NCBI GenBank assembly: GCA_016839555.1 | Contig: JAEOUA010000012.1 | Coordinates: forward strand, 128,001-192,000 | Origin: Promethearchaeota archaeon | GTDB lineage: Archaea; Asgardarchaeota; Lokiarchaeia; Sigyniarchaeales; SOKP01 | Direction: 5' to 3' | Length of the DNA stretch: 64,000 nt | Part shown: piece after piece, positions 10,343 through 24,121 of the stretch | Position numbering within the stretch: the stretch's first letter is position 1 | How the letters are laid out: each line of letters begins with the position of its first letter | The notes under the pieces: model-generated | Database searches by the model: none | Seen by the model: only the letters and a program-made list of their open reading frames with translations | Told to the model about the DNA's origin: nothing | Program-made: the position numbers and the translations under genes

Positions 10343-11830
10343 TTAAGGAAGAGCTAATCTTCCAGGATGCATTATCATATTAGGATCAACTAACTTTTTA
10401 AAAGCTCTCAAATATTTCCAGTACATTCCCGCTTTGCTATATGTTAACGGTGCATGAATATAAGGATCAGGTCTATAATTAAGCCATCCTTGTTCTAATC
10501 CATATTCTGTGGTCTCTCTGTTGAGTTCTTGTACTCTTTCAAAATCTTCAGGATTAGTGGAATCAAAGCATATAATTGGCATGCAAATCGCTTGTCTACC
10601 ACGTTCAATGGAAGCAACCCACATTGTAGGGGGAAAACCGTATTTCTCCATCGCATTACAATACATTTCTGAGAAATGTGCACATTCATTCCAAGGAGTA
10701 TACCAAGTGATAAAGAGGAATCCCGCATCATAGAAGCTATAAGGAATCGCAATTTTATTAGGTTTCCTTAATCTGCTTGCGATCTGTTTCGGATGGAGTT
10801 CCCACTTCTTTATTGCATCAGGATCTTTTGCTCTATTTTCTTTATAATCCTTTGCCATTTTATCAATTCTATCTGTCACATAATCCAATTCTTCTTGGGT
10901 TTGTGCCCAGCATTCAAAATTCATCCACCACTTAGAAATTCCAATCTTTTCATAGAATTCATAATTTTGAGGGATTTTTTCTTTTGGCCAGCGAGTCATA
11001 ATCAATGGATAATTTCCTCCCTGAACCATAACTGTATTATGTGCTATTCCAAATTCTTGTTTCTGGATCTCTAGGGTTAGGTCTTGCATATCGTAAGGAT
11101 TAGACATGCCCCAAGCAACTACAGTTTTAAATTCTGGATGCGGATAAATCTTTACCGCAACTTTAGTAATCACGCCAAATGCTCCTTGGCTTCCCATTAA
11201 TAATGACCACATATCAGGGCCTATCCCATATTTATAGAAAGGTTTAGAACCAGGAAGCGCCCAAGATCCAGTCCTTAAAATATCTCCGTTTGGAAATACT
11301 ACTTCTGCGCACATAAAATTATCTCCCTGGGGTCCTACGCTTGAAGTATATAGGGAAAATCCCCTATCAATCGCGTCTCCCATAACAGTTGATGCTGGTG
11401 GAGCTCCATCCGGTATAGGTGGTGCCCAATCAGGAGTATGCTTATGCATCCAAGCCCATAATCTTCCAATAGTTACTCCTGGTTCCACAATCGCATATCG
11501 ATTTTCTTCGTCAACTTCAAGAATTCTATCCATTCGACTTAAATCCAACATAACTCCCGCCGGGTTAATGGTTGGACATGCAAACCCTCCAGAGAGTCCT
11601 CCAGAGATAGGAGAGACAGCAATCTTTTCTTCTGAACAATAAACCAAAATCTTTCTAATTTCTTCCACGTATTTTGGTCGCAACACGATATCGGGAATCT
11701 GAGATTCCAAGCCCATTACGGATTTTGAGAGATAAGATGCTGTAATGGCTTCATCCATCGATGCGTAGGCCTTACCCACAAACGATTGTAATGCCGAAAA
11801 GTCCTTTTCAGTAGGTGCTTTATAACTCAT
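10343..11830 (-). CDS. FAD-binding oxidoreductase (VAO/GlcD/PCMH family)
   Basis: PDIVLRP, LDLSRMDRILEVD, VEPGV, GSQGAFGVITK, DPNMIMHPG; co-oriented 21 bp upstream of the Fe-S subunit gene. Confidence 0.9.
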   Translation of the reverse strand: MSYKAPTEKDFSALQSFVGKAYASMDEAITASYLSKSVMGLESQIPDIVLRPKYVEEIRKILVYCSEEKIAVSPISGGLSGGFACPTINPAGVMLDLSRMDRILEVDEENRYAIVEPGVTIGRLWAWMHKHTPDWAPPIPDGAPPASTVMGDAIDRGFSLYTSSVGPQGDNFMCAEVVFPNGDILRTGSWALPGSKPFYKYGIGPDMWSLLMGSQGAFGVITKVAVKIYPHPEFKTVVAWGMSNPYDMQDLTLEIQKQEFGIAHNTVMVQGGNYPLIMTRWPKEKIPQNYEFYEKIGISKWWMNFECWAQTQEELDYVTDRIDKMAKDYKENRAKDPDAIKKWELHPKQIASRLRKPNKIAIPYSFYDAGFLFITWYTPWNECAHFSEMYCNAMEKYGFPPTMWVASIERGRQAICMPIICFDSTNPEDFERVQELNRETTEYGLEQGWLNYRPDPYIHAPLTYSKAGMYWKYLRAFKKLVDPNMIMHPGRLALP

Positions 11831-12983: not shown

Positions 12984-13433
12984 TTAAAAATCATCTTTTT
13001 CACTACTGAGAGGTTTTACTCCCGTAGCTAAGGAGCTCACATTAAAGAGTTTCCAGTATCCATCTTTATTTTTTTTGAGATGTACCGGACTTGCAAAGTC
13101 TTTACCTCCACTTTGCACAAAAATTTTAGACTTTTTTGCCCCTCGTTTAGAAGAATCTTCCACTATTATAGGATCATTATCATAGGAATAGGCATAATCA
13201 TTATCGGGTGTCCCTCCCAAATATGAGCCGGTATTATGCTTATCAAATTGATATTGCAAATAGTATTTTACATTAGAACTTATTTTATTTTTTGGTAGAG
13301 TCATTGCAATCATTTTTTCAGCATTCTCATTCCCATCTAAATATTCTAAGACTCCCATTAAAAAACATTTTATAGTTCCCTCTTCTGTAGTTCCTAATTC
13401 GTTCCACTTTGATTCAAATTCTGCAAATTTCAT
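12984..13433 (-). CDS. Conserved hypothetical protein (DUF6935-like)
   Basis: SYLGGTPDNDY and FVQSGGKDFASPVHLKK..GYWKL..SSLATGVK. Confidence 0.65.
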   Translation of the reverse strand: MKFAEFESKWNELGTTEEGTIKCFLMGVLEYLDGNENAEKMIAMTLPKNKISSNVKYYLQYQFDKHNTGSYLGGTPDNDYAYSYDNDPIIVEDSSKRGAKKSKIFVQSGGKDFASPVHLKKNKDGYWKLFNVSSLATGVKPLSSEKDDF

Positions 13434-13626: not shown

Positions 13627-14448
13627 CTACGTTAATCTTTTTGTTTTTGCGAATTCATTTCCCAAATATGCTCCACCTAGCGAAGCTATTGCAACAAATG
13701 GCAGAAATGAAAGTATGGGATAAATTAAAATAGAAGCTATCGCACCAAGGGCAAAAAGATGAGCTATTATTATCAAGATAAAATATATAATTGCGTTAAG
13801 GATACTTACCTTTAAATTTAGTAATATATACCCTGAAATAAAGTTTCCTATGCCAAACAAAATTATAAGCTCAGCAAATAGTCCTAGTACTAATATCGGT
13901 ATGGTTTGTTTAACCAAATTTTCAGGTGTTATATATATTGGGATATTTCTTAAAATAAAATTCGCAAAAACCCATATATTTATTATTGTCAGAACAACAC
14001 CTATGCCTATTAATACGATAATAGATATAATGAATCTCAAAAGAAGTGAAGAGGTCCCTCTTCTTCTTAAATTGTCTTTTATTATATCATCCATTTTCTC
14101 TCGATTTTTCACTAATTCAAGATCGTAAGCCGGCGAAAATTCATCAATGAAATCCGTCAACAGAGTTTTTAATATTGTTTTAACCAATCCATTATTATCT
14201 TTTATACTGACAATTGCGGCTCCAAAAATATTTTCTTGAGTATTTAATTCGAATATTACTTTGCTATCTTTACCAAGGTCGACAAAATCTACAATACTCT
14301 CTAATCCTTCTCGGCTAAAATTCACGACGGAACTGAAAAAGCCCAATATTAAATTTTCATCAAAAGGTTGCTTAATAAAGCTCTCTGAATATAATAGCAT
14401 ACCATTTCGACGCAATATATATAAACTTTTAATCAATTTTCTTCTCAC
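13627..14448 (-). CDS. Longin-like domain fused to four TM helices
   Basis: N-terminal IKSLYILRRNGMLLYS..DENLILGFFSSVVNFSRE pattern typical of Asgard longin domains; four hydrophobic helices in the C-terminal half. Confidence 0.75.
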   Translation of the reverse strand: MRRKLIKSLYILRRNGMLLYSESFIKQPFDENLILGFFSSVVNFSREGLESIVDFVDLGKDSKVIFELNTQENIFGAAIVSIKDNNGLVKTILKTLLTDFIDEFSPAYDLELVKNREKMDDIIKDNLRRRGTSSLLLRFIISIIVLIGIGVVLTIINIWVFANFILRNIPIYITPENLVKQTIPILVLGLFAELIILFGIGNFISGYILLNLKVSILNAIIYFILIIIAHLFALGAIASILIYPILSFLPFVAIASLGGAYLGNEFAKTKRLT

Positions 14449-14457
14449 TTTTACTTA

Positions 14458-16170
14458 TTATATTAATTTTAAATATTCGATATAATCCCTTAAATTACAT
14501 TTTACGATTTCGAAATTTATTAATTCAGAACCAAATAAATGAACAATTTTTTTAATTACTTGGGTTGCATCCTTTTTTGGAAATATTTTATATTTCTCAT
14601 TCCTACGCTCTTCAATAATTATTACCGAATCAAGATTAAATAATGTTTTTAGAGTCTCTTCCGTTGGATAATTTAATTCAATTTTTATGATTTCTCCCTC
14701 TTGAGGAACTTGGCATGTCAACTCGTCTACAATTCCAACCTCTGTTTTTTTGTCAGTTATAGTAATTACTTTGTCGCAATTTTCTACAAACTCTTCAGGC
14801 CCTTCTACCAAGAATATTACATGAAATTCTTTTTTAATATTATCTAATGCGTTTTTGAATTCCTTATATTGTAATCTGTTAAATATTTCTTCTTGCATTG
14901 AAAACATTATGATATCAGCAGATTGTATAAGAGCTCTTGCGATTGAAAAAAGTAAGAAGTCTATTGGTTCTAAATCTTTTACTTTTTGATTTTCTTTAAA
15001 TGTTAATCCTGTTAATTGGAGTATTTTTTTAATAAAATCCCGTTTCTTCTTGAATTTTTTTAGAAAAGTAATGAATTTCCAAAAATATCCTTTAGTAATC
15101 AATTCATCGATTAGAGTTGATAATCCAGCTTCTTGTATTTTAGTTCTTAATTCCTCATCCTCAAAACTCGATTCAAATTTAATCTTTATGTTAGATTTTA
15201 TTGCATCCTTGACTTTCTGGTTGGAAATTTTTGGTTCGATTGGTTTAGGTAACACGAAGATTCTCTTTTGATCTTCTTGAGAGAGTAATTGTACAAATTT
15301 TCCAAAAAATTTTATAGTTCCAGAGAAAACTTGCTCTTTACCCGCTATAGCATTATATAATTTCATTACATTTGCCTTTTCAATAAATTCCTCTTTTTTG
15401 GTATTGAATAAAATTCCTATTGATTGCCCTCTATGTACTTTAAGCGAGATATTATTAATTAATTGCCCAGTTGAAACTTTTTTTAATAATAAGATTTGAT
15501 ATTTTTTATAATACTCCACCAACCTTAATAGCTTTAGAATATAATTAATTAAGTGGTCTATTATATCTGTGATATGAGGTGGGTTTAATTCCTCCCAATT
15601 TCTTAATTCCTCAAAATCCAAAAAAGTTTCTAAGTTGATAATTTTTAAAAGGTTTCTTGAAAAGTAAAAAGTAGGTTTTAAAGGATACTTTTCAAGATCC
15701 ACCTTTAATTCCGTAGAAAACTCAGGAAAATATAGTATGATCTCCCTAAAATATGGAATATTATCGATAGCATAATTTTCAAATCTTTGGTCTATTAATT
15801 TTACCTCCATATCTAATATTTTTAAATGATATTGGAATTCCCGTTCTATTAACTCATCAATCCGATTAATAATTTTCATTGGACTTATCAACCCGTCATC
15901 ATCAAAATCGGGATCTATCAAAACATCATTAAAATCAACTTCCGTCTCAATTGGGGTATATATTTCTAAGATGGGCATTGCTTTCTCCAAAACATCCTGA
16001 TTAGGAAAGAATAATATCTCAATATAGCTCCTTTTATAATCCAAATCCAAAATGGTTGATACTCCGAAAGTATCTTTTTTATAAATCATCCAATAATGCT
16101 CAGAATGTCTGATAGTAGTATTTATTTTTTCCCGAATTAACTCTAATTCTTCCTTTCTAGTTCTATTCAA
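14458..16170 (-). CDS. RWD/UEV(E2-like)-domain protein fused to a degenerate ABC ATPase domain
   Basis: aa ~115-215 LDMEVKLI..LKVDLEKYPLKPTFYFS..LRNWEELNPPHITDII; ABC scaffold NNISLKVHRGQSIGIL, FSIARALIQSADII with Walker A, LSGG and DE lost. Confidence 0.7.
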   Translation of the reverse strand: MNRTRKEELELIREKINTTIRHSEHYWMIYKKDTFGVSTILDLDYKRSYIEILFFPNQDVLEKAMPILEIYTPIETEVDFNDVLIDPDFDDDGLISPMKIINRIDELIEREFQYHLKILDMEVKLIDQRFENYAIDNIPYFREIILYFPEFSTELKVDLEKYPLKPTFYFSRNLLKIINLETFLDFEELRNWEELNPPHITDIIDHLINYILKLLRLVEYYKKYQILLLKKVSTGQLINNISLKVHRGQSIGILFNTKKEEFIEKANVMKLYNAIAGKEQVFSGTIKFFGKFVQLLSQEDQKRIFVLPKPIEPKISNQKVKDAIKSNIKIKFESSFEDEELRTKIQEAGLSTLIDELITKGYFWKFITFLKKFKKKRDFIKKILQLTGLTFKENQKVKDLEPIDFLLFSIARALIQSADIIMFSMQEEIFNRLQYKEFKNALDNIKKEFHVIFLVEGPEEFVENCDKVITITDKKTEVGIVDELTCQVPQEGEIIKIELNYPTEETLKTLFNLDSVIIIEERRNEKYKIFPKKDATQVIKKIVHLFGSELINFEIVKCNLRDYIEYLKLI

Positions 16171-19100
16171 TTTTTGGAACCTCCATTGCTTTGTATCTAA
16201 AATATTCTTCCATTTTACTATCAGATTGATTTATTCCCAATATAGAATTATCTCCAAACTCTTCTCCAACTTCCTTCCTGAGTTTAATTTTAGGCAAATT
16301 AGATAAAATTATATAGTCTGTACCTACCTTATTTTCCAGTGCTTTTTTAATTCCTTCTATTGCTTCTAATCTTTCTATGGCATCATCTTGGGGATCATAG
16401 AAAAATAATTCTAATGATCTTCCACCGCCTGGGAGTTGAGATAATAATTCTCTAGGTGTTCCGAAATCTATCATACCACGCCCTCTACCAAAAATAACAA
16501 CTTTATTACAAAACTTAGATTCTTCGGGATAATGGGAAATAACTAATAAAGTGGTATTAAATTTTTCATTAATTTTAGTAAGAGATAGCCATAATCTTTC
16601 TCTCACCACAGGATCTAAACCACTCGTAGGTTCATCAAGGATACAAAAAACTGGATTATGAATTAAAGACATTGCAATGCTTACCCTTCGTTTTTCCCCA
16701 CCAGATAAGTTCTTTAATTTTTCATTTATTTTATCCTCAATTTCAAGACTTCTTAAGGTTCGTTTTGCTTTGCTAACTATTTCTTTTTCAGTCATTCCAT
16801 ATTGTTTTCCAAAATAGATTAAATTTTGAAGAGTAGTAAAGTTCAAATATATTTTTCCTAAATCTTGTGGGACATATCCATAGATCGATCTAAATTTTCT
16901 CTTATTTCTTTTAGCATCCATGCCATAGATTTCGCATATTCCTTTATATTTATGCATTCCTAAAACAGCTTTAATAAAAGTAGATTTTCCAGCGCCACTT
17001 TCTCCTAATATACCCAGAATTTCACCATGTTCTATTTTTAAGGAAACATCATTAACAATCAATTTTCGTCTTATATAGATGTTTAAATTTTCACAATATA
17101 AGGTGGGAAATTTCTTCAAATAGTCTCTACTTAGTTTATCTTTGAAACCGAAAGTAGTTCTTATTTTTTTGACTATATAATTTTTTAAATAATAGAAAAT
17201 ATTAATCAAAATTAATAAAACTAAAAGAAGGCCTTCAGATATGGATAAAAAAGCTAATAAATTATTCCATGGGGTAGGATCAAAGGCTTGATCATATCTT
17301 ATTTCATCAATAAATACTAATGCATAAGCGATATTTCTTAGATCTCCCCCAAAAAAAGCATCATCACCAACTCCACCCGTTGTTTGGCTAATGCAGAATC
17401 GAAACCATCTCACTAAATTTTTTATATGTTCTGGCTGCAAATTATACTCATATAAGGCAATTGATCCAAAATAGGTTCCTAAAAATGAAGATGGTAAATC
17501 CAAAAGCGATGAGAGATATGGTATTACATTAAAACCTCCATCATTAGATTGTGCATTTTTGAGAAATTCCATCGCAGCCATTTCTGATAATGGTTCAATA
17601 CCCAAAAAATTTAGCAATGTTAATCCATAATATGTCGAAATTACATCCGAATGAAACCCATAAAATATTCCAAATCCTCCGTCTGCATTTTGAGAGGAAA
17701 CAAGCCAATGTCTTAAACTTATTGGATTTATGAGGGTTATAGCTTTCAAGCTTGTCAAACTATATACCGCCCAATAAGTACTTTCAATAGTAGATATATT
17801 TGAGTTTACAACATCTAATAAAGGTTCATAAGCAGCACCGAAATAAGAAATAATTATATCCAAGTCTTCAGTTAACTTAAAACCTCCATCGGGATTTTGT
17901 AAGGAAGCTAAATATCGTGCTGTAGCAGTTTCATTATTAATCCAGGTTCTAGTATAAGGTAAGAATAATTGACTTATATAAACTGCACAATAAGTAGAAA
18001 AAACACTAGAATTATATCCTGGTTGAGAACCATAACCTCCATCTACAACATTATAGCATGAATTCACGAAATTTGCTATGCTATTTATATTTATAAATAA
18101 TGGAAATTTAGAACCGGCATAATTATAAATAGATTTTACTCCTAAATAATTACTCAATAGAGAAATCTCCCCAATTAATCCATTCATCGCTTGATGATCA
18201 TATAACCAATTATAATAATTTATTTTTACCGTATCACTTATATTTAAGGAAGGTGAAGCATTATTTTCCAATAACCGGATTGAATTCATGGCAGCCCATC
18301 CTGATTTAAAGTCTGACGTTATATTTGAAAAGGAATGAGATCCGAATCCTCCATCAGTATTTTGACAACTAAGTATATAATTTTTAGTACGATTTTCAGA
18401 TGATGGTGTACTATTAAAATGATATATTGACCATAATGAATAATAGGTAGAACTTATATCAGAAAGACTGGCACTTGATGGAGTTGCTCTATATCCTCCA
18501 TCTAATATATTATATAAAGTAGTAAAATATGTTTTAATCCAAGATTCTTCTGTAGAATTATAAGTATTATTCAACTCTAAATAAGCTTTAATTCCAAAAT
18601 AAGTTGTTTCTGCCGTAATAGTATATGTACGATTAGAAAACCTATAATTCCCAAAAAATGCGATTGTATGATTTCCTAACTCTTTTATATAATTTGTTAG
18701 ACTCTCGTTATTATTTTCCAAAATAGAATTAAAATTTAATAATTTTGCTAATCTTATTCCATAATACGTGGAAATTATATCTGCTTCTTCCGCCTCTTCA
18801 TTGTATTTAAAACCATAGCCATTTTCTGCTAAAGAATCCTTAAGATACTCCTTTATTCTATAAATTCTAATTTGATGAGCGGGATTTTCTAAAAATGAAT
18901 CGCTTAAAAGATTAATTGTTTGTATTGCTTTATAAGTGGAATACATATTGCCTAAACCATTTATATCTGAATATGAACCGTCATCATTCTGTTTTTCGAA
19001 TAAATAATCTAAAAAAAATTGTTTCCTGAAAAAAATTAAATGCGGATTCTTATTAGGATTTATTAAACTAGAATTACTAAATGCGATACTTGAAAAATTA

Positions 19101-19336
19101 ATAGAATCAATCGCTCTATAGTTTGCTACTATAGTGGGTTCAACAAACAAACGACTTGAAGGATTTTGATGGGTATATGCAAAATAGAACATATCAGTTT
19201 TATAAGCCTCAACCTCATTTTCTTCGAAATATATTATAAACTGAGAATTAATTATGAAATAAGTTACTAATTGGCTAAAATAAAGCGCAATAATTATTAT
19301 AACATACGTTAATTGGCGTTTCTTTCTTCTATCCAA
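16163..19336 (-). CDS. Fusion: signal anchor + prenyltransferase/squalene-oxidase repeats + TM helix + ABC ATPase
   Basis: About ten QNxDGG[FY]-type repeats with DxxSTY[YW]-type helices; TM at aa ~690-717; GESGAGKS, YVPQ, LSGGE, ILDEPT, ISH all intact. Confidence 0.88.
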   Translation of the reverse strand: MDRRKKRQLTYVIIIIALYFSQLVTYFIINSQFIIYFEENEVEAYKTDMFYFAYTHQNPSSRLFVEPTIVANYRAIDSINFSSIAFSNSSLINPNKNPHLIFFRKQFFLDYLFEKQNDDGSYSDINGLGNMYSTYKAIQTINLLSDSFLENPAHQIRIYRIKEYLKDSLAENGYGFKYNEEAEEADIISTYYGIRLAKLLNFNSILENNNESLTNYIKELGNHTIAFFGNYRFSNRTYTITAETTYFGIKAYLELNNTYNSTEESWIKTYFTTLYNILDGGYRATPSSASLSDISSTYYSLWSIYHFNSTPSSENRTKNYILSCQNTDGGFGSHSFSNITSDFKSGWAAMNSIRLLENNASPSLNISDTVKINYYNWLYDHQAMNGLIGEISLLSNYLGVKSIYNYAGSKFPLFININSIANFVNSCYNVVDGGYGSQPGYNSSVFSTYCAVYISQLFLPYTRTWINNETATARYLASLQNPDGGFKLTEDLDIIISYFGAAYEPLLDVVNSNISTIESTYWAVYSLTSLKAITLINPISLRHWLVSSQNADGGFGIFYGFHSDVISTYYGLTLLNFLGIEPLSEMAAMEFLKNAQSNDGGFNVIPYLSSLLDLPSSFLGTYFGSIALYEYNLQPEHIKNLVRWFRFCISQTTGGVGDDAFFGGDLRNIAYALVFIDEIRYDQAFDPTPWNNLLAFLSISEGLLLVLLILINIFYYLKNYIVKKIRTTFGFKDKLSRDYLKKFPTLYCENLNIYIRRKLIVNDVSLKIEHGEILGILGESGAGKSTFIKAVLGMHKYKGICEIYGMDAKRNKRKFRSIYGYVPQDLGKIYLNFTTLQNLIYFGKQYGMTEKEIVSKAKRTLRSLEIEDKINEKLKNLSGGEKRRVSIAMSLIHNPVFCILDEPTSGLDPVVRERLWLSLTKINEKFNTTLLVISHYPEESKFCNKVVIFGRGRGMIDFGTPRELLSQLPGGGRSLELFFYDPQDDAIERLEAIEGIKKALENKVGTDYIILSNLPKIKLRKEVGEEFGDNSILGINQSDSKMEEYFRYKAMEVPKIE

Positions 19337-20437
19337 TTATATACCACCACTCTTCTCTGATTTCTCGTTTTCAGTATTTTTTAAGTGTTCTTCCTCTTCT
19401 TTAGTTTCTCCAATTTTTATTTCTTGTTCTCTTTCCTTTTCTTCTTCTTCTTGAATTCTAATTTGGAAATATCTTCTAAAATTAGCGCTGTCTCTACTCA
19501 TTGAAATAATTTTTATTCCTTTTTCAAATAAATAATCAATAAATGGATTAATGTTTTTTCCAAAATCATATAAAAAGACCTCTATATTAATATTTCCTAC
19601 TCTCGAAATTCTTTCACAATATTCAAATGCTTTTATTATATCTATTTTCTCTTGAGTTAAATCTTGAATTGTTAATCTGACCAATAAGCCATTACTTGGG
19701 AGTGTTTGGATTAAATTATGGGGGCTATCAAATGCTAATAATTCTCCTTCTCGTAAAATGGCAGTTTTATCACAAATTAGAGCAGCTTCAAGATCATGAG
19801 TAATTATGAACATTGTTGTCCCCAATTTTCTATTAAGTATTTTGAGATAATTTAATATATCGTATCGCTTATTTGCATCAACTCCTGTTGTTGGTTCATC
19901 AAGAAATAACACTTCTGGATTATGAATGAGCCCTATTGCCATAGAAACTCTTTTTTTTTCACCGCCACTCAGCTTTTTTAAAGCATTTTTCCATGTGTCT
20001 TCTGGAATATCTAATATTGAAAATAATTCCTCTGCAACCTCTTTAGCTTTTTCTTTTTTCATTCCATAATTAGAAGCAAATGTTTCAACATTTACTAAAG
20101 GAGATAATTCATAATAGAGATTTAATAATTCTAATTGAGGCACATACCCGATTCTACTCAATATTTTTTGATGGTTTTTCTCTTTTGCTGGATTTAAATG
20201 AGTTACTAACACATCTCCAGTCCAGTTTTTACTTTTAATCTGACAAGTCAACACCCTTATGATAGTAGTTTTTCCTGCACCTGAAATTCCAAATAATCCT
20301 ATTATTTCACCTTTCCTAACTTCAAAGGAGACATCATGAATGATGTGTGCCTTTCCAAATGTGACATTCAAACCCTGTACCTTAACTACTATCTCATTTG
20401 AATTTAATTCTTTTATGATATCCACCTCATACTTCAT
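19337..20437 (-). CDS. ABC transporter ATP-binding protein (ABC-2/DrrA type)
   Basis: GISGAGKT, YVPQ, LSGGEKKR, FLDEPT, ITHD; acidic C-terminal tail. Confidence 0.93.
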   Translation of the reverse strand: MKYEVDIIKELNSNEIVVKVQGLNVTFGKAHIIHDVSFEVRKGEIIGLFGISGAGKTTIIRVLTCQIKSKNWTGDVLVTHLNPAKEKNHQKILSRIGYVPQLELLNLYYELSPLVNVETFASNYGMKKEKAKEVAEELFSILDIPEDTWKNALKKLSGGEKKRVSMAIGLIHNPEVLFLDEPTTGVDANKRYDILNYLKILNRKLGTTMFIITHDLEAALICDKTAILREGELLAFDSPHNLIQTLPSNGLLVRLTIQDLTQEKIDIIKAFEYCERISRVGNINIEVFLYDFGKNINPFIDYLFEKGIKIISMSRDSANFRRYFQIRIQEEEEKEREQEIKIGETKEEEEHLKNTENEKSEKSGGI

Positions 20438-21593
20438 ATCTCCTTCTATAAAAAAAAATAAATGTGAAAATATTTAATATTAGACTTACTGCAAGTAGCA
20501 TATAAAAATGGAATCCAAAAACTGAAACTCCTTTTGTAAGAATTGATTGTATCATTGGACCACCGTGAGATAGAGGTAAAATATATGAAATTGCTTGAAG
20601 ATAAATGGGCATACTCTCTATTGGTACAAATGATCCAGATAACAAAATAATAATAACAAAGGAGGCCAAAAATAACTGGTTTGCCTCGGTTTTGGTCTTA
20701 CTTACGGAACTAATGAATGTCCCAATGCTTAAACCGCTATATCCAATCATATATATAGCTAAGAATAAATTTATTATTGTTCCTTTAACGAATAAACCAC
20801 CAAACAAGGCGGCAAGGACTATTCCTAGCTCTTGGATAAATAAAATAATCGAAAATGTTAGGAATTTCGCGAAAAGTATTTCTTTTCTCTTTATGGGTGT
20901 TAATAAGAGTCTCGGAATAGGTTTTTCTTTTACTATAATCAATATCGTTAAGACATTCGCAATACCAAATACCATTAGAGGAAGCATAACAACTAATGTT
21001 GAATTGAAGCCCTCATTGTATTCTTTGGGAATTGAAAATGGAGTAAAAGCATTAAGTTTTACTTGAGGGGTCAAATTATTATCATTAGTAAAAATTTTAA
21101 TTGAATCATATACTGCATTAAGATTATTTTGAATATCTGTAATTCGAGATGAATCGGGGATACAATTAATCAACCCCGGAAGCCCATTTACGAGCATTTC
21201 AGTAAAATCCACGGGTATTACAATTATACATTTTATTTCAGAATATAATAGTTGTTGTCTTGCTAATTCCATAGCATAAGGATACTTACTCGTATTATAA
21301 ATAGCTTTTGGAAATAAGTAAAAGGATTTAATTACAGCATCAATATAAGGTTTCGTATAATTATCAACTGCTATTTCCGTAAAATTATTCGGATTTATAT
21401 AAGCGTTGGAATCATTAGAGACAATAGCAACCGGTAATGGGGAAAAAGTAACTTTTTCTTGCTCCATTGATGAAAGCAATATAATTATACCCGGAGGTAA
21501 TAAAAGAGCTATTATTATATTCCAAGGATCTGTTCTTATTAATCTGAATTCTTTTTTAATCATTTTAAAAAATCTATAGGAACTATGTTTCAT
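20427..21593 (-). CDS. ABC-2 type permease
   Basis: IKKEFRLIRTD, one TM + extracellular loop + five TM, RLLLTPI, LLSGSFVPIESMP. Confidence 0.9.
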   Translation of the reverse strand: MKHSSYRFFKMIKKEFRLIRTDPWNIIIALLLPPGIIILLSSMEQEKVTFSPLPVAIVSNDSNAYINPNNFTEIAVDNYTKPYIDAVIKSFYLFPKAIYNTSKYPYAMELARQQLLYSEIKCIIVIPVDFTEMLVNGLPGLINCIPDSSRITDIQNNLNAVYDSIKIFTNDNNLTPQVKLNAFTPFSIPKEYNEGFNSTLVVMLPLMVFGIANVLTILIIVKEKPIPRLLLTPIKRKEILFAKFLTFSIILFIQELGIVLAALFGGLFVKGTIINLFLAIYMIGYSGLSIGTFISSVSKTKTEANQLFLASFVIIILLSGSFVPIESMPIYLQAISYILPLSHGGPMIQSILTKGVSVFGFHFYMLLAVSLILNIFTFIFFYRRRYEV

Positions 21594-21659
21594 ATTCCTG
21601 AAAGTTTCCTTGGTTTTACGAATTAATTTCTCCTTTATCTCATTTATATCGGGGATAAA

Positions 21660-22814
21660 TTACACCTCCACTTTTTTAAATAAAAATATTATATACGATA
21701 AAATGAGATATACACTACTTAAAATTAATAAACCTAAAAATGCCATTAGATTTAATGGTAATCCCTTAAACGTAATATCGTAAATGAGGGGGATGGCATG
21801 AGCTAAGGGAAATATATATACAATTGCTCGCATAATAGTGGGCAATCCTTCTGGATCAATGTAAATACCAGAAAATAGCATGATTACCACGAAAAGGATC
21901 ATATATAATTGATTCGCTTGCTGTTCCGTACCACTAAGTGAAGATATAAACAAACCTATTGATACCCCTGCCAGCCCCACGCCAAGTAGGACTAAAAGCA
22001 ACTCAAATAAGGAACCAAGAGCATATAATCCAAATAACGCTGTGCCTATAAAAATTTCACCTGCTTGTAATACCATAATCAGAACATTCGCAATTAATTT
22101 ACTTAAGACAATGGAACCTTTTGAGGCAGGAGTAATTAACATTCTTGGTAATGGTTCATCAGATACTATTGAAAGACATGCTAAATTCATTGTTGTCCCA
22201 ATAATAATTAGGGGAATGGTTAATGGAAACGCATAATTTAGCGTTTGTTTTTCCCAAAAGGGGACTTCAAATTCTAAATAAGGTATAACAGCAGTTAAAT
22301 TCTCCGTTATCTCTATCTTTTGCCTAAAAGAAGCTATAGGTTCTTGCATTGCAACTTGAATGGCATCAGTAGCTTGTGAATCAGATCCATCAACAAAATA
22401 TGCGATATAACTTGAAGTTTTATTTTCAATGCTTTCAGAAAAATCTTCTGGTAATACTAAAAAGACATCAATTTCTTCATTTTGAAGTAAATCCATATTC
22501 TTTTCATATGCATATAAAAATAGCGCTCCAGATGAGCAAGGATAATAGCCTTGGAAGCCAAAGGAACCAAGGCCCTCTACAAAGACTTTGGCAAAATCAT
22601 CCTCATATTCGGAAGTATTAGAGGGGTAATTACCATAAGTAGGCATCTCATCTATCGAAATAATGCTCGCATTGAAAAATTTGGTAACACTTCCCCCCGT
22701 AGTTAATCCAAAAATAACAATTAAAATGATAGGAATTGAGAATAATAATATAAGGGAGCGCTTATCTGCTCTGATTCTCCCAAGTTCCTTTCGTACTAAG
22801 GTGCTGAGCTTCAT
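21660..22814 (-). CDS. ABC-2 type permease
   Basis: VRKELGRIRAD, RMLITPA, FSGIYIDPEGLP; paralogous to the adjacent permease. Confidence 0.9.
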   Translation of the reverse strand: MKLSTLVRKELGRIRADKRSLILLFSIPIILIVIFGLTTGGSVTKFFNASIISIDEMPTYGNYPSNTSEYEDDFAKVFVEGLGSFGFQGYYPCSSGALFLYAYEKNMDLLQNEEIDVFLVLPEDFSESIENKTSSYIAYFVDGSDSQATDAIQVAMQEPIASFRQKIEITENLTAVIPYLEFEVPFWEKQTLNYAFPLTIPLIIIGTTMNLACLSIVSDEPLPRMLITPASKGSIVLSKLIANVLIMVLQAGEIFIGTALFGLYALGSLFELLLVLLGVGLAGVSIGLFISSLSGTEQQANQLYMILFVVIMLFSGIYIDPEGLPTIMRAIVYIFPLAHAIPLIYDITFKGLPLNLMAFLGLLILSSVYLILSYIIFLFKKVEV

Positions 22815-22990: not shown

Positions 22991-24121
22991 TTATAGAATG
23001 GACTTTCTATTCTGAAATTTATGAAGTCTCTTTAAAGCTTCTAATTTTTCTTGCTTTTCTAAACGAGACTGATCAATGGCATCTTTTAATATTTGTGCGC
23101 ATTTTTCCATTCTTTGTAGATTAACCGGATAAGGGATACCATCTTTTCCTCCTACTGCATAGCTATATTTTGCTGGATCCTTCCAACTTGGAGCTTCTCC
23201 CCAAATAAATTCTGAGATTAAAGCTAAGGCCCTAATCATTCCAGGTCCTAAACCTTCAATTTTCAATAAATCAGTATAGTCGTTTAATCCGATTTGCTTT
23301 GCCATATCAACGCTTTCCCATTTTAGAGTGAAAGGAATTGGCATATCGAGACGAGGAATCTTTTTTACCTTAATTGCTTTTTCTGGCATAGCAAAATCAT
23401 AAAGGCTTTTTTGTGAAGTGTCTTTTAACCTATGGAGATATCTTTTAATTCTCTTCGCTCCTTCATTAATTAAATCTAGAGACACCTTTCGAGATTCATG
23501 ACTTTTGGAACTTACCATATCCAAAACTTTATTTTTATAGACTTCTGTTGTAATATCTTTATGAGGATCATCAATAAAACTCTTAAGTCCTGAATGCCAA
23601 TGATATCTTCTCGCTTTCTTAATAGTTCCATCAAGACCTTGTTGAACAATCCCCCATTTATCTTCCGAAACAATCATGAGGTGATGGTATAATGAAAAGC
23701 CATCTTGCAGAGCAACATTATCAATCTTAGCAACTAATCGACTAATTTCGGCCAAATCATTCACATTATCTTCATTATAATCTAAAATATTAGCATTTTT
23801 ATTTAGATGCTCCCTAACTTTTGTAGCATTTTTCCCTTTTCCACCCGCTATAATTAATCCATGCTCCTTAGGCTTTATTATTTGCTTGAGAATACCTCCC
23901 AATACCGTTGTGCATCCGCTTGAATGCCAATCAAAGCCTAAAATACACGCTAGCCCTTGAAACCAATAAGTGTCAGATAAGCGCTTAATAATTCCATTGG
24001 GCCCCTCAAAATCATATAAGATATCAAAAATAGGTTTTCCTAAGGATATCATCCTCCTCAATAACCAGTGAGGCGCCTTAGAGCTATGTAATGGAAGCGT
24101 TGCTATCCCTACTTTACTCAT
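22991..24121 (-). CDS. DUF763 family protein
   Basis: ATLPLH..APHWL, GFDWHSSG, QDGFSLYHH, DPAKYSYAVGGKDGIPYPV. Confidence 0.88.
   Translation of the reverse strand: MSKVGIATLPLHSSKAPHWLLRRMISLGKPIFDILYDFEGPNGIIKRLSDTYWFQGLACILGFDWHSSGCTTVLGGILKQIIKPKEHGLIIAGGKGKNATKVREHLNKNANILDYNEDNVNDLAEISRLVAKIDNVALQDGFSLYHHLMIVSEDKWGIVQQGLDGTIKKARRYHWHSGLKSFIDDPHKDITTEVYKNKVLDMVSSKSHESRKVSLDLINEGAKRIKRYLHRLKDTSQKSLYDFAMPEKAIKVKKIPRLDMPIPFTLKWESVDMAKQIGLNDYTDLLKIEGLGPGMIRALALISEFIWGEAPSWKDPAKYSYAVGGKDGIPYPVNLQRMEKCAQILKDAIDQSRLEKQEKLEALKRLHKFQNRKSIL

Follow-up and report, generated by a model that had tools for sequence, protein, structure and literature searches.

The window analysed here, a 64-kb stretch of a Promethearchaeota archaeon genome (contig JAEOUA010000012.1, forward-strand positions 128,001 to 192,000), carries at positions 13627-22814 of its minus strand six co-oriented open reading frames (ORFs) that form one operon-like run in the ORF listing and encode a real, conserved and undescribed variant of the ABC-2 class of ATP-binding cassette (ABC) transporters with eukaryote-like accessory folds. 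In gene order, the run comprises permease 1 (gene 1, 21660-22814, 384 aa), permease 2 (gene 2, 20427-21593, 388 aa), a stand-alone ABC ATPase (gene 3, 19337-20437, 366 aa), a fusion of a transmembrane (TM) helix, a prenyltransferase-repeat ectodomain, a second TM helix and an ABC ATPase (gene 4, 16163-19336, 1057 aa), a pseudo-ATPase with a probable RWD-like domain (gene 5, 14458-16170, 570 aa), and a longin domain followed by four TM helices (gene 6, 13627-14448, 273 aa). Positions of all six genes and of their domains refer to the window, and all lie on its minus strand. From gene 1 to gene 6, neighbouring genes are 66 bp apart, overlap by 11 bp, abut (0 bp), overlap by 8 bp and are 9 bp apart, in exact agreement with a first-pass annotation made from the sequence alone. 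Homologues of gene 6 begin at MIKSLYIL, four codons downstream of the listed GTG start, and the database copy has 269 aa; because no homologue has the four extra residues (14436-14448), the true start is probably the TTG at 14436, in which case the last gap would be 21 bp. Seven sequencing runs are listed for this DNA, each a marine-sediment or marsh metagenome with probable DNA as its recorded type, and no RNA run is among them.

We lean towards the view that the six proteins form one heteromeric ABC-2 (type V) membrane machine, an exporter or mechanotransducer, which would be regulated or localised by the pair consisting of the pseudo-ATPase/RWD protein and the longin-TM protein. No description of this gene combination was found in full-text literature searches, in agreement with the first-pass annotation, which knew of no system with this layout. 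To our knowledge, Asgard genomes encode dozens of longin and ubiquitin-conjugating (UBC)/RWD-type 'eukaryotic signature' domains, almost none of which has a known partner or role. The interest of the operon lies chiefly in providing a tractable genetic context for these domains: across ~77 species, the longin and RWD-like domains consistently occupy the two final genes of a defined membrane machine, which makes the six proteins a concrete, expressible target for asking what the two folds did before eukaryotes.

Transporter core

Both permeases matched the Pfam family ABC2_membrane_3 (PF12698) far above its cut-off of 31.6 bits (95.7 and 85.9 bits for permeases 1 and 2, respectively), and both also passed PF01061 (64.5 and 59.5 bits; cut-off, 26.9 bits). 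A crude hydropathy scan of permease 1 indicated a first TM helix (TM1), an outside loop of ~150 aa and then five to seven hydrophobic segments; permease 2 is a paralogous ABC-2 permease, likewise with an outside loop, and is syntenic with permease 1. The outside loops contain four and six N-x-S/T sequons, respectively, corresponding to 2.6-3.9 per 100 aa. The gene 3 ATPase matched ABC_tran (PF00005) with 89.9 bits, its alignment to TIGR01188 drrA spans residues 26-317, and the catalytic motifs read from its translation are complete (Walker A GISGAGKTT, LSGGE, LFLDEPT and ITHD). It is a paralogue of the gene 4 ATPase, with 35% identity over 254 residues.

Gene 4 encodes a predicted N-terminal signal-anchor TM helix (about residues 9-30, 19247-19312; hydropathy segment 9-27, after RRKKRQ), followed by an extracellular alpha/alpha-repeat domain of the prenyltransferase/terpene-cyclase type, recognised by its Pfam Prenyltrans matches and sequons (about residues 31-692, 17261-19246). 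A second TM helix (about residues 693-717, 17186-17260; hydropathy segment 691-709, then a K/R-rich stretch) joins the ectodomain to a cytoplasmic ABC ATPase with a C-terminal domain (residues 745-1057, 16166-17104). The ectodomain scored 125 bits against Prenyltrans (PF00432; cut-off, 26.5 bits), distributed over four stretches, with additional SQHop_cyclase_N/C matches, and its best sequence relatives in the PDB were the beta subunits of RabGGTase and FTase (E 7e-7 to 1e-4). It contains at least eight Q..DGGF-type repeats with conserved aromatic, Gly and Gln columns, a number that should suffice for two alpha/alpha barrels. There are 15 sequons in this domain (2.3 per 100 aa), compared with 0.5-1.2 per 100 aa in the cytoplasmic parts. 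Because two hydrophobic helices flank this sequon-rich domain of ~660 residues, the ectodomain is predicted to lie outside and to be glycosylated, and the ATPase to lie inside. The latter matched ABC_tran (PF00005) with 96.4 bits, and GESGAGKST, LSGGEKRR, LDEPTSGLD and SHY were invariant in 42 homologues. Fusions of the gene 4 type were present in at least 149 protein clusters, and all source-named ones came from Promethearchaeota. The ectodomain-TM-ATPase fusion represents an undescribed wiring of an ABC motor to the cell surface.

With ABC2_membrane_3 found twice, ABC_tran twice and Prenyltrans once, all above their cut-offs, the first-pass calls of permease, permease, ATPase and repeat-TM-ATPase fusion were substantiated. 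Since both permeases exceed the Pfam cut-offs and both nucleotide-binding domains (NBDs) of genes 3 and 4 have all motifs, the core was deemed complete. The same annotation had singled out an 'L.Q.LP..G' extension at the ends of all three ATPase domains. The motif itself is real (P489, G492 and E498 of gene 5 are conserved), but it marks the transition from the ATPase core to a further C-terminal domain of ~80-100 residues and is not the end of the protein. Model alignments and the structure match given below identify it as the known C-terminal-domain junction of DrrA/GldA-type ATPases and not as a special feature of this operon.

Gene 5 pseudo-ATPase

The AlphaFold2 (AF2) model of gene 5, built on 49 homologues, had a mean pLDDT of 85.7 and a pTM of 0.78. 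A structure match and the motif columns assign residues 223-570 (14461-15504) to a pseudo-ATPase with an ABC NBD fold and a C-terminal domain; this part aligned with 4yer_B at Z 18.9 (root-mean-square deviation, rmsd, 4.0 Å; 258 residues aligned), and direct Pfam and NCBIfam searches gave only faint C-terminal ABC matches. In column counts over the 49 homologues, GxxGxGK[ST], LSGGQ and the D-E pair of Walker B were all missing. The corresponding positions are occupied by G-I-[LI]-Y-[DE]-E (Walker A), [SK]xLTPL[DE] (signature) and IIMFS[IL]P (Walker B). The dead ATPase proposed in the first pass therefore holds for the family as a whole, from which Walker A, signature and Walker B have all gone, and because the loss is common to the whole family it must be old and stable. 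Two other elements were retained, namely a Q-loop-like FG..xQ segment (F289 and G290 invariant; Q294 in 36 of the 49 homologues) and the junction between the NBD and the C-terminal domain (P489 and E498 invariant). The pseudo-NBD aligned with the gene 4 NBD (BLASTP E 1e-4), including the L.Q.P..G junction, and its alignment with gene 3 was not significant. Judged by these sequence alignments, it derives from the NBD type found in genes 3 and 4, whose C-terminal domain it shares, and has since diverged; of the two, the gene 4 NBD is the closer kin.

Gene 5 N-terminal domains

Upstream of the pseudo-ATPase, the AF2 model contains two domains. Domain 1 (residues 1-96, 15883-16170) is an alpha+beta domain with a pLDDT of ~85 (helix 5-21, strands 26-31, 34-42 and 47-54, helix 57-63, strand 68-71), for which no Pfam, PDB or profile link was obtained; hhalign and HMMER likewise connected it with neither domain 2 nor RWD cores. 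Domain 2 (residues 97-222, 15505-15882) is probably a non-catalytic RWD/UBC-like domain, an assignment drawn from its modelled topology, its invariant columns and a profile link. The predicted topology is alpha-4 beta-alpha, that is, one long helix, four strands and then helices, which is the layout by which the UBC/RWD superfamily is defined (PMC6601020). A conserved Y162-P163-x-x-P166 lies between strands 3 and 4, forming a YPxxP turn one residue short of YPxxxP, and W192...P197-H199 precedes the last helix. Among the 49 homologues, residues 1-222 contain no conserved Cys.

Direct searches with this region were unproductive. A Pfam scan of the 49 gene 5 N-terminal domains at E up to 10 gave scattered chance matches only, with no RWD, UEV or UQ_con; a PDB profile search with the gene 5 N-terminus returned Rpb8 alone (E 0.2); and a Protein Atlas feature search with residues 1-218 and 97-222 returned nothing usable. 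E2 ubiquitin-conjugating rows that appeared in BFVD in the whole-model search (E 0.013 and 0.024) were weak and were not taken as evidence, the list being filled by ABC ATPases.

The profile link came from other Lokiarchaeial proteins. A phylum-wide genome scan with the gene 5 N-terminal profile gave weaker matches, over residues ~100-215, in other Lokiarchaeial ORFs. Multi-RWD proteins of this group (360-720 aa) are built of UBC/RWD-like units in tandem (two to four per protein), followed by a Cys-rich zinc-ribbon/RING-like end, and are encoded at L081:7458-9194, L086:898-3054 (minus strand), L084:7417-8514 and 30 further loci (L088-L117). Their middle units were the closest relatives of gene 5 domain 2 in HMMER (independent E-values, iE, of 1e-10 to 1e-13), and their first and last units passed the Pfam cut-offs for UQ_con (33-36 bits) and RWD (31-34 bits). 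When a profile of domain 2 and the middle units was compared with trimmed Pfam-certified RWD cores, hhalign returned a 90.6% match (E 1.3e-6, 96 columns) that brings the YP turn and the Trp into register, and HMMER agreed in both directions (1e-5 to 1e-6). Domain 2 alone aligned with the RWD cores in the same register (hhalign, P 0.04). The Pfam RWD model reached E <=0.001 in 41 of the 61 genomes of the window's class that were searched, and exceeded the cut-off in 36. Overall, the first-pass label 'RWD/UEV-like' is partly upheld by topology, HMMER links and the 90.6% profile match, although no direct Pfam or PDB sequence match accompanies it.

A separate protein of 288 aa (P0125, L082:7464-8330) combines an N-terminal alpha/beta domain, longin- or roadblock-like by eye, with one gene-5-type RWD unit (iE 1.2e-13). 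It was considered as a longin-RWD fusion linking genes 5 and 6 and was rejected, its N-terminal domain showing no similarity to the gene 6 longin and no Pfam match.

Gene 6 longin-TM protein

Gene 6 is predicted to comprise a cytoplasmic longin domain (residues 1-133, 14050-14448), assigned from Foldseek and VIA structure matches, and a four-helix membrane domain (residues 134-273, 13630-14049), assigned from hydropathy and from AF2 helices at 135-166, 175-209, 212-233 and 239-270. The pLDDT was 68 overall and 62-83 in the longin domain. Foldseek retrieved AP sigma, zeta-COP, TRAPP and Sec22b at E 4.5e-5, and VIA aligned residues 5-132 with AP-3 (9c58_M) at Z 13.9 and an rmsd of 2.8 Å over 120 of 124 residues, followed by VAMP7 (4afi_B, Z 13.0), Sec22b (1ifq_B, Z 12.7) and SRX (Z 11.8). 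The longin fold expected in the first pass was thus recovered by structure search. The DSSP order of the domain is beta-beta-alpha-beta-beta-beta-alpha-alpha, without an N-terminal helix, which fits the longin and not the roadblock arrangement as these are contrasted in PMC10933270. In the membrane domain, the conserved residues are P184, N202, G206, N218, P250 and G263.

At the sequence level, gene 6 had no Pfam match and reached no longin model at cut-off, and an orthologue reached Clat_adaptor_s at E 0.18. HMMER, run exhaustively against 1.84 billion representatives, identified only 125 clusters, about half of them full-length longin-TM proteins and the rest soluble longins. The soluble relatives gave sub-threshold Pfam matches to Fuz_longin_1, Clat_adaptor_s, Sybindin and Longin, with Fuz_longin_1 at 24.1 bits against a cut-off of 26.1 bits. 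The complex prediction for genes 5 and 6 scored 0.00, which carries no weight either way. No small GTPase gene was found in the operon or among the conserved neighbours scanned. In strain MK-D1, small-GTPase genes generally lie outside operons with roadblock, longin or TRAPPC3 genes (PMC10933270); for this reason partners are hard to guess, and the operon context of gene 6 is unusual.

Conservation and distribution

Conservation was scanned using one genome per GTDB species, with tblastn of each operon part at the loci found. This yielded 77 species loci, whose records all bear the title Promethearchaeota or the name of an Asgard group. The first-pass annotation had made its proposal depend on the last two genes staying beside the transporter in other genomes, and they did so in all informative loci: the longin-TM gene directly followed the pseudo-ATPase gene in 69 of the 69 with enough downstream DNA. 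Of the 52 loci with sufficient DNA upstream, 47 had all five upstream parts; contig ends truncate two of the remaining five, and the other three (L017, L040 and L062) had no permease pair nearby. At these three loci the gene 5-6 pair still directly followed the ATPase and barrel-ATPase genes, and at a fourth, rearranged locus (L083) the pseudo-ATPase gene still adjoined them. Because these four loci deviate, the six genes are not an indivisible block.

Strong orthologues (E <1e-50) were found almost only in the window's own GTDB family, in which 115 of 134 genomes had some match at E <=0.001. Another family of the class contributed a complete six-gene copy in the same order (L085, 24-50% identity), and a third family the rearranged copy L083. 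No match was detected in 26 other families searched, a 27th gave a single borderline match (E 7.5e-4), and two closed genomes of a sister family (G138, 6.0 Mb; G143, 4.3 Mb) gave weak paralogue-level matches only. The system is confined to Promethearchaeota, mostly to one GTDB family of the window's class, and apparently has no strong orthologue in the two closed sister-family genomes. The 'Asgard' scope of the first-pass annotation was accordingly too broad, nearly all strong orthologues being in one family, with diverged copies in a few sister families. Eight metagenome-assembled genomes among the loci (L014, L025, L031, L032, L034, L041, L058 and L078) had been labelled Hodarchaeota, Hermodarchaeota, Odinarchaeota or Thorarchaeota by their submitters; since the GTDB-based search places nearly all strong holders in one family, these phylum-level labels look unreliable.

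Unrelated DNA was observed between genes 4 and 5 at L002, L008, L009, L065 and L078, leaving the 5-6 pair unbroken. At L002 (540-3884) the intervening DNA encodes a surface protein of 1114 aa, a beta-propeller anchored in the membrane by its C-terminus; the other loci have inserts of 2.6-3.5 kb, and the operon order is otherwise kept. The unbroken pair at these five loci, its persistence at the three permease-less loci and the Q-loop-like segment of the pseudo-NBD, which in real NBDs is the contact with the membrane partner, would all suit a different arrangement, in which the pseudo-ATPase is docked on the four-TM protein to form a 'pseudo-transporter', a separate membrane module that shares the exporter's promoter and acts elsewhere. 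We regard this arrangement as improbable, because even at the permease-less loci the pair comes directly after the ATPase and barrel-ATPase genes, no locus read apart from the rearranged L083 has the pair without a gene-4-type ATPase, and the pseudo-NBD, by its alignments, diverged from the NBD type of the operon itself and shares its C-terminal domain.

The complete loss of ATP-binding motifs from gene 5 could also be taken as decay, with genes 5 and 6 being neutral passengers, i.e., a duplicated ATPase that lost its function and a hitch-hiking membrane protein. This is very hard to credit, given that the frames have stayed open at full length in 77 species (40-88% identity), that many columns away from the lost motifs are invariant, that the gene 5 model is confident (pLDDT 85.7), and that the motif loss is family-wide and hence old and stable.

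Proposed mechanism

Taking the six proteins as one ABC-2 machine, and starting from the observed gene content, folds, motif loss and strict co-inheritance, we infer its stoichiometry, contacts, transport direction and cargo as follows. The two paralogous permeases would form the membrane pair, and the gene 3 and C-terminal gene 4 ATPases the ATP-hydrolysing pair, as their anatomy suggests. The gene 4 ATPase would be tethered by a single TM helix to a glycosylated, double-barrel-sized surface domain positioned over the outside loops of the permeases; this domain may accept a hydrophobic or glycan-like cargo on export, or ATP-driven motion may displace it, as in NosDFY or MacB-type mechanotransmission. 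The products of genes 5 and 6 would be constant accessory subunits at the cytoplasmic face. Of these, the dead ATPase, predicted to keep its partner-docking parts (the Q-loop-like segment and the junction of NBD and C-terminal domain) and to be unable to bind ATP, might act as a scaffold or brake presenting the RWD-like domains, and the longin-four-TM protein might anchor a longin platform at the same membrane, so that the two would together regulate or localise the pump.

Several points weigh against this proposal. The permease pair was not within 8-10 kb at L017, L040 and L062 (3 of the 52 species), and the rearranged locus L083 had no longin-TM gene in the 16.5 kb read. Were a pseudo-NBD without Walker A and signature to pair with an active NBD, neither ATP site would work. 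The fold family of the ectodomain gives nothing firm on cargo, and the conserved neighbouring genes, considered as a clue to a pathway, were judged uninformative.

FtsEX, LolCDE, MacB and NosDFY are ABC systems that do work outside the membrane, and the operon may similarly encode a transmembrane mechanotransducer or sensor rather than a substrate exporter. The surface barrel would then bind an external ligand or partner, ATP- or ligand-driven motion would pass through the single TM helix, and genes 5 and 6 would provide the cytoplasmic signalling or recruitment output. The covalent link from ectodomain through TM helix to NBD suits a transmitter of force or signal, the structures matched by the NBD include NosDFY (7qba, Z 16.7), RWD and longin folds are typically platforms for protein-protein contacts (PMC6601020, PMC10933270), and a PAS histidine kinase and a response regulator were located near the operon in ~20 loci. 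However, the permeases are of the ordinary ABC-2 exporter type, both NBDs are fully catalytic by motif, the operon has neither an output enzyme nor a DNA-binding domain, and the kinase and regulator occur in a minority of loci and may merely mirror the relatedness of the genomes; we therefore consider a pure sensor unlikely.

Within the machine proposed above, genes 5 and 6 could even be an archaeal forerunner of eukaryotic adaptor platforms, in which the longin and the E2-variant-like domain jointly sense a signal in the cytoplasm, be it a small GTPase, an ESCRT-type factor or a ubiquitin-like modifier. This signal would gate an ABC machine serving to remodel or supply the cell envelope, e.g., by moving an isoprenoid lipid or glycolipid to the surface barrel. 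This is a long shot. If true, it would be the first operon-encoded functional link of the Asgard 'trafficking' and 'ubiquitin' folds to a membrane transporter. A lipid or lipidated-protein cargo, like any coupling to trafficking or ubiquitin, is pure conjecture.

Neighbouring genes and an insert in gene 3

The operon is flanked in the window by genes for DUF763 (22991-24121) and DUF6935 (12984-13433) proteins, which adjoin it only in the closest relatives and are therefore not operon members. The recurrent downstream neighbours were a GlcD-like FAD oxidase (44 loci) and a CCG/4Fe-4S protein (42 loci); others were a second large Prenyltrans-repeat protein (25 loci) and a legumain-like peptidase C13 (19 loci), and in nine loci a glycerol-3-phosphate dehydrogenase gene lay directly downstream. 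In the window, an ORF of 495 aa (10343-11830) resembles the GlcD-like oxidase cluster, a likeness of length only.

In seven species (L005, L006, L014, L017, L040, L051 and L062), the gene 3 orthologue is split by an insert of 31-32 nt (at 6301-6332 in L005), which the window's own gene 3 (19337-20437) lacks. The insert falls precisely where the Walker B codons (LDEPTT) end and those of the D-loop (GVDA) begin. Its length is not a multiple of three, it contains stop codons, only its complete removal restores the frame, and the flanking coding sequence is conserved. It can form a hairpin of 9-10 bp, and two insert types differ in sequence and share this structure; no clear canonical bulge-helix-bulge was seen on examination of the insert. 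Going by these sequence features, it is possibly a small archaeal mRNA intron.

Comparison with known systems

The closest general resemblance is to ABC-2/type V exporters with DrrA-like ATPases (DrrAB, NodIJ, GldAFG and the YbhFSR/RbbA group; NBD TM_1403, PDB 4yer), which share the ABC2_membrane_3 permeases with an outside loop after TM1. The order permease-permease-ATPase is also shared, and the NBDs align over their full length, including the C-terminal domain, with TIGR01188 drrA and TIGR03522 GldA. The best NBD scores were nonetheless far below the curated NCBIfam cut-offs (177 vs 312 for drrA, 137 vs 403 for GldA and 151 vs 1050 for RbbA), and the operon therefore contains no equivalog of DrrA, NodI, GldA or RbbA. 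Unlike DrrA-type exporters, it encodes three NBD-type proteins rather than one, with a surface domain of 660 aa joined to one NBD by a TM helix, a pseudo-NBD with RWD-like domains and a longin-TM subunit; we know of no DrrA-type system for which extra NBDs, a surface-domain fusion, a pseudo-NBD/RWD protein or a longin-TM protein has been described.

With NosDFY, MacB, LolCDE and FtsEX, the operon shares the pairing of an ABC motor with a large domain outside the cytoplasm, possibly a moved one, and the NBD of NosF is a structural neighbour. The ectodomain is here attached covalently to the ATPase via one TM helix, whereas in those systems it is on the permease or is a separate protein, and its fold is an alpha/alpha repeat barrel, as opposed to a beta-helix or Sabre/Porter domains.

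The accessory domains have their counterparts elsewhere. The gene 6 longin has the same fold and order as eukaryotic longins (AP sigma/mu N-terminal domains, zeta-COP, TRAPP Bet5/Trs23/synbindin, Sec22b/VAMP7, SRX and Fuzzy/Mon1) and soluble Asgard longins, with Z 11-14 and rmsd 2.6-3.4 Å over 114-123 residues, but in contrast to the eukaryotic longins it is joined to a four-helix membrane domain instead of a SNARE motif and tail anchor, and it belongs to an ABC operon with no GTPase gene. Domain 2 of gene 5, as modelled, resembles RWD and non-catalytic UBC folds (GCN2 RWD, UEV, the FANCL double RWD and kinetochore RWDs) in its alpha-4 beta-alpha topology, its YPxxP turn between strands 3 and 4, its conserved Trp followed by a helix, the lack of a catalytic Cys and the occurrence of tandem units; it differs in having YPxxP in place of YPxxxP, in its fusion to a dead ABC ATPase and in giving no direct Pfam RWD, UEV or UQ_con match. 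The gene 4 ectodomain shares PF00432 repeats with protein prenyltransferase beta subunits and squalene-hopene cyclase, and those of RabGGTase and FTase are its best PDB relatives. Unlike these enzymes, it is predicted to be extracellular, glycosylated and flanked by TM helices, and the operon encodes no alpha-subunit partner for it; it is probably a binding module rather than a prenyltransferase or cyclase.

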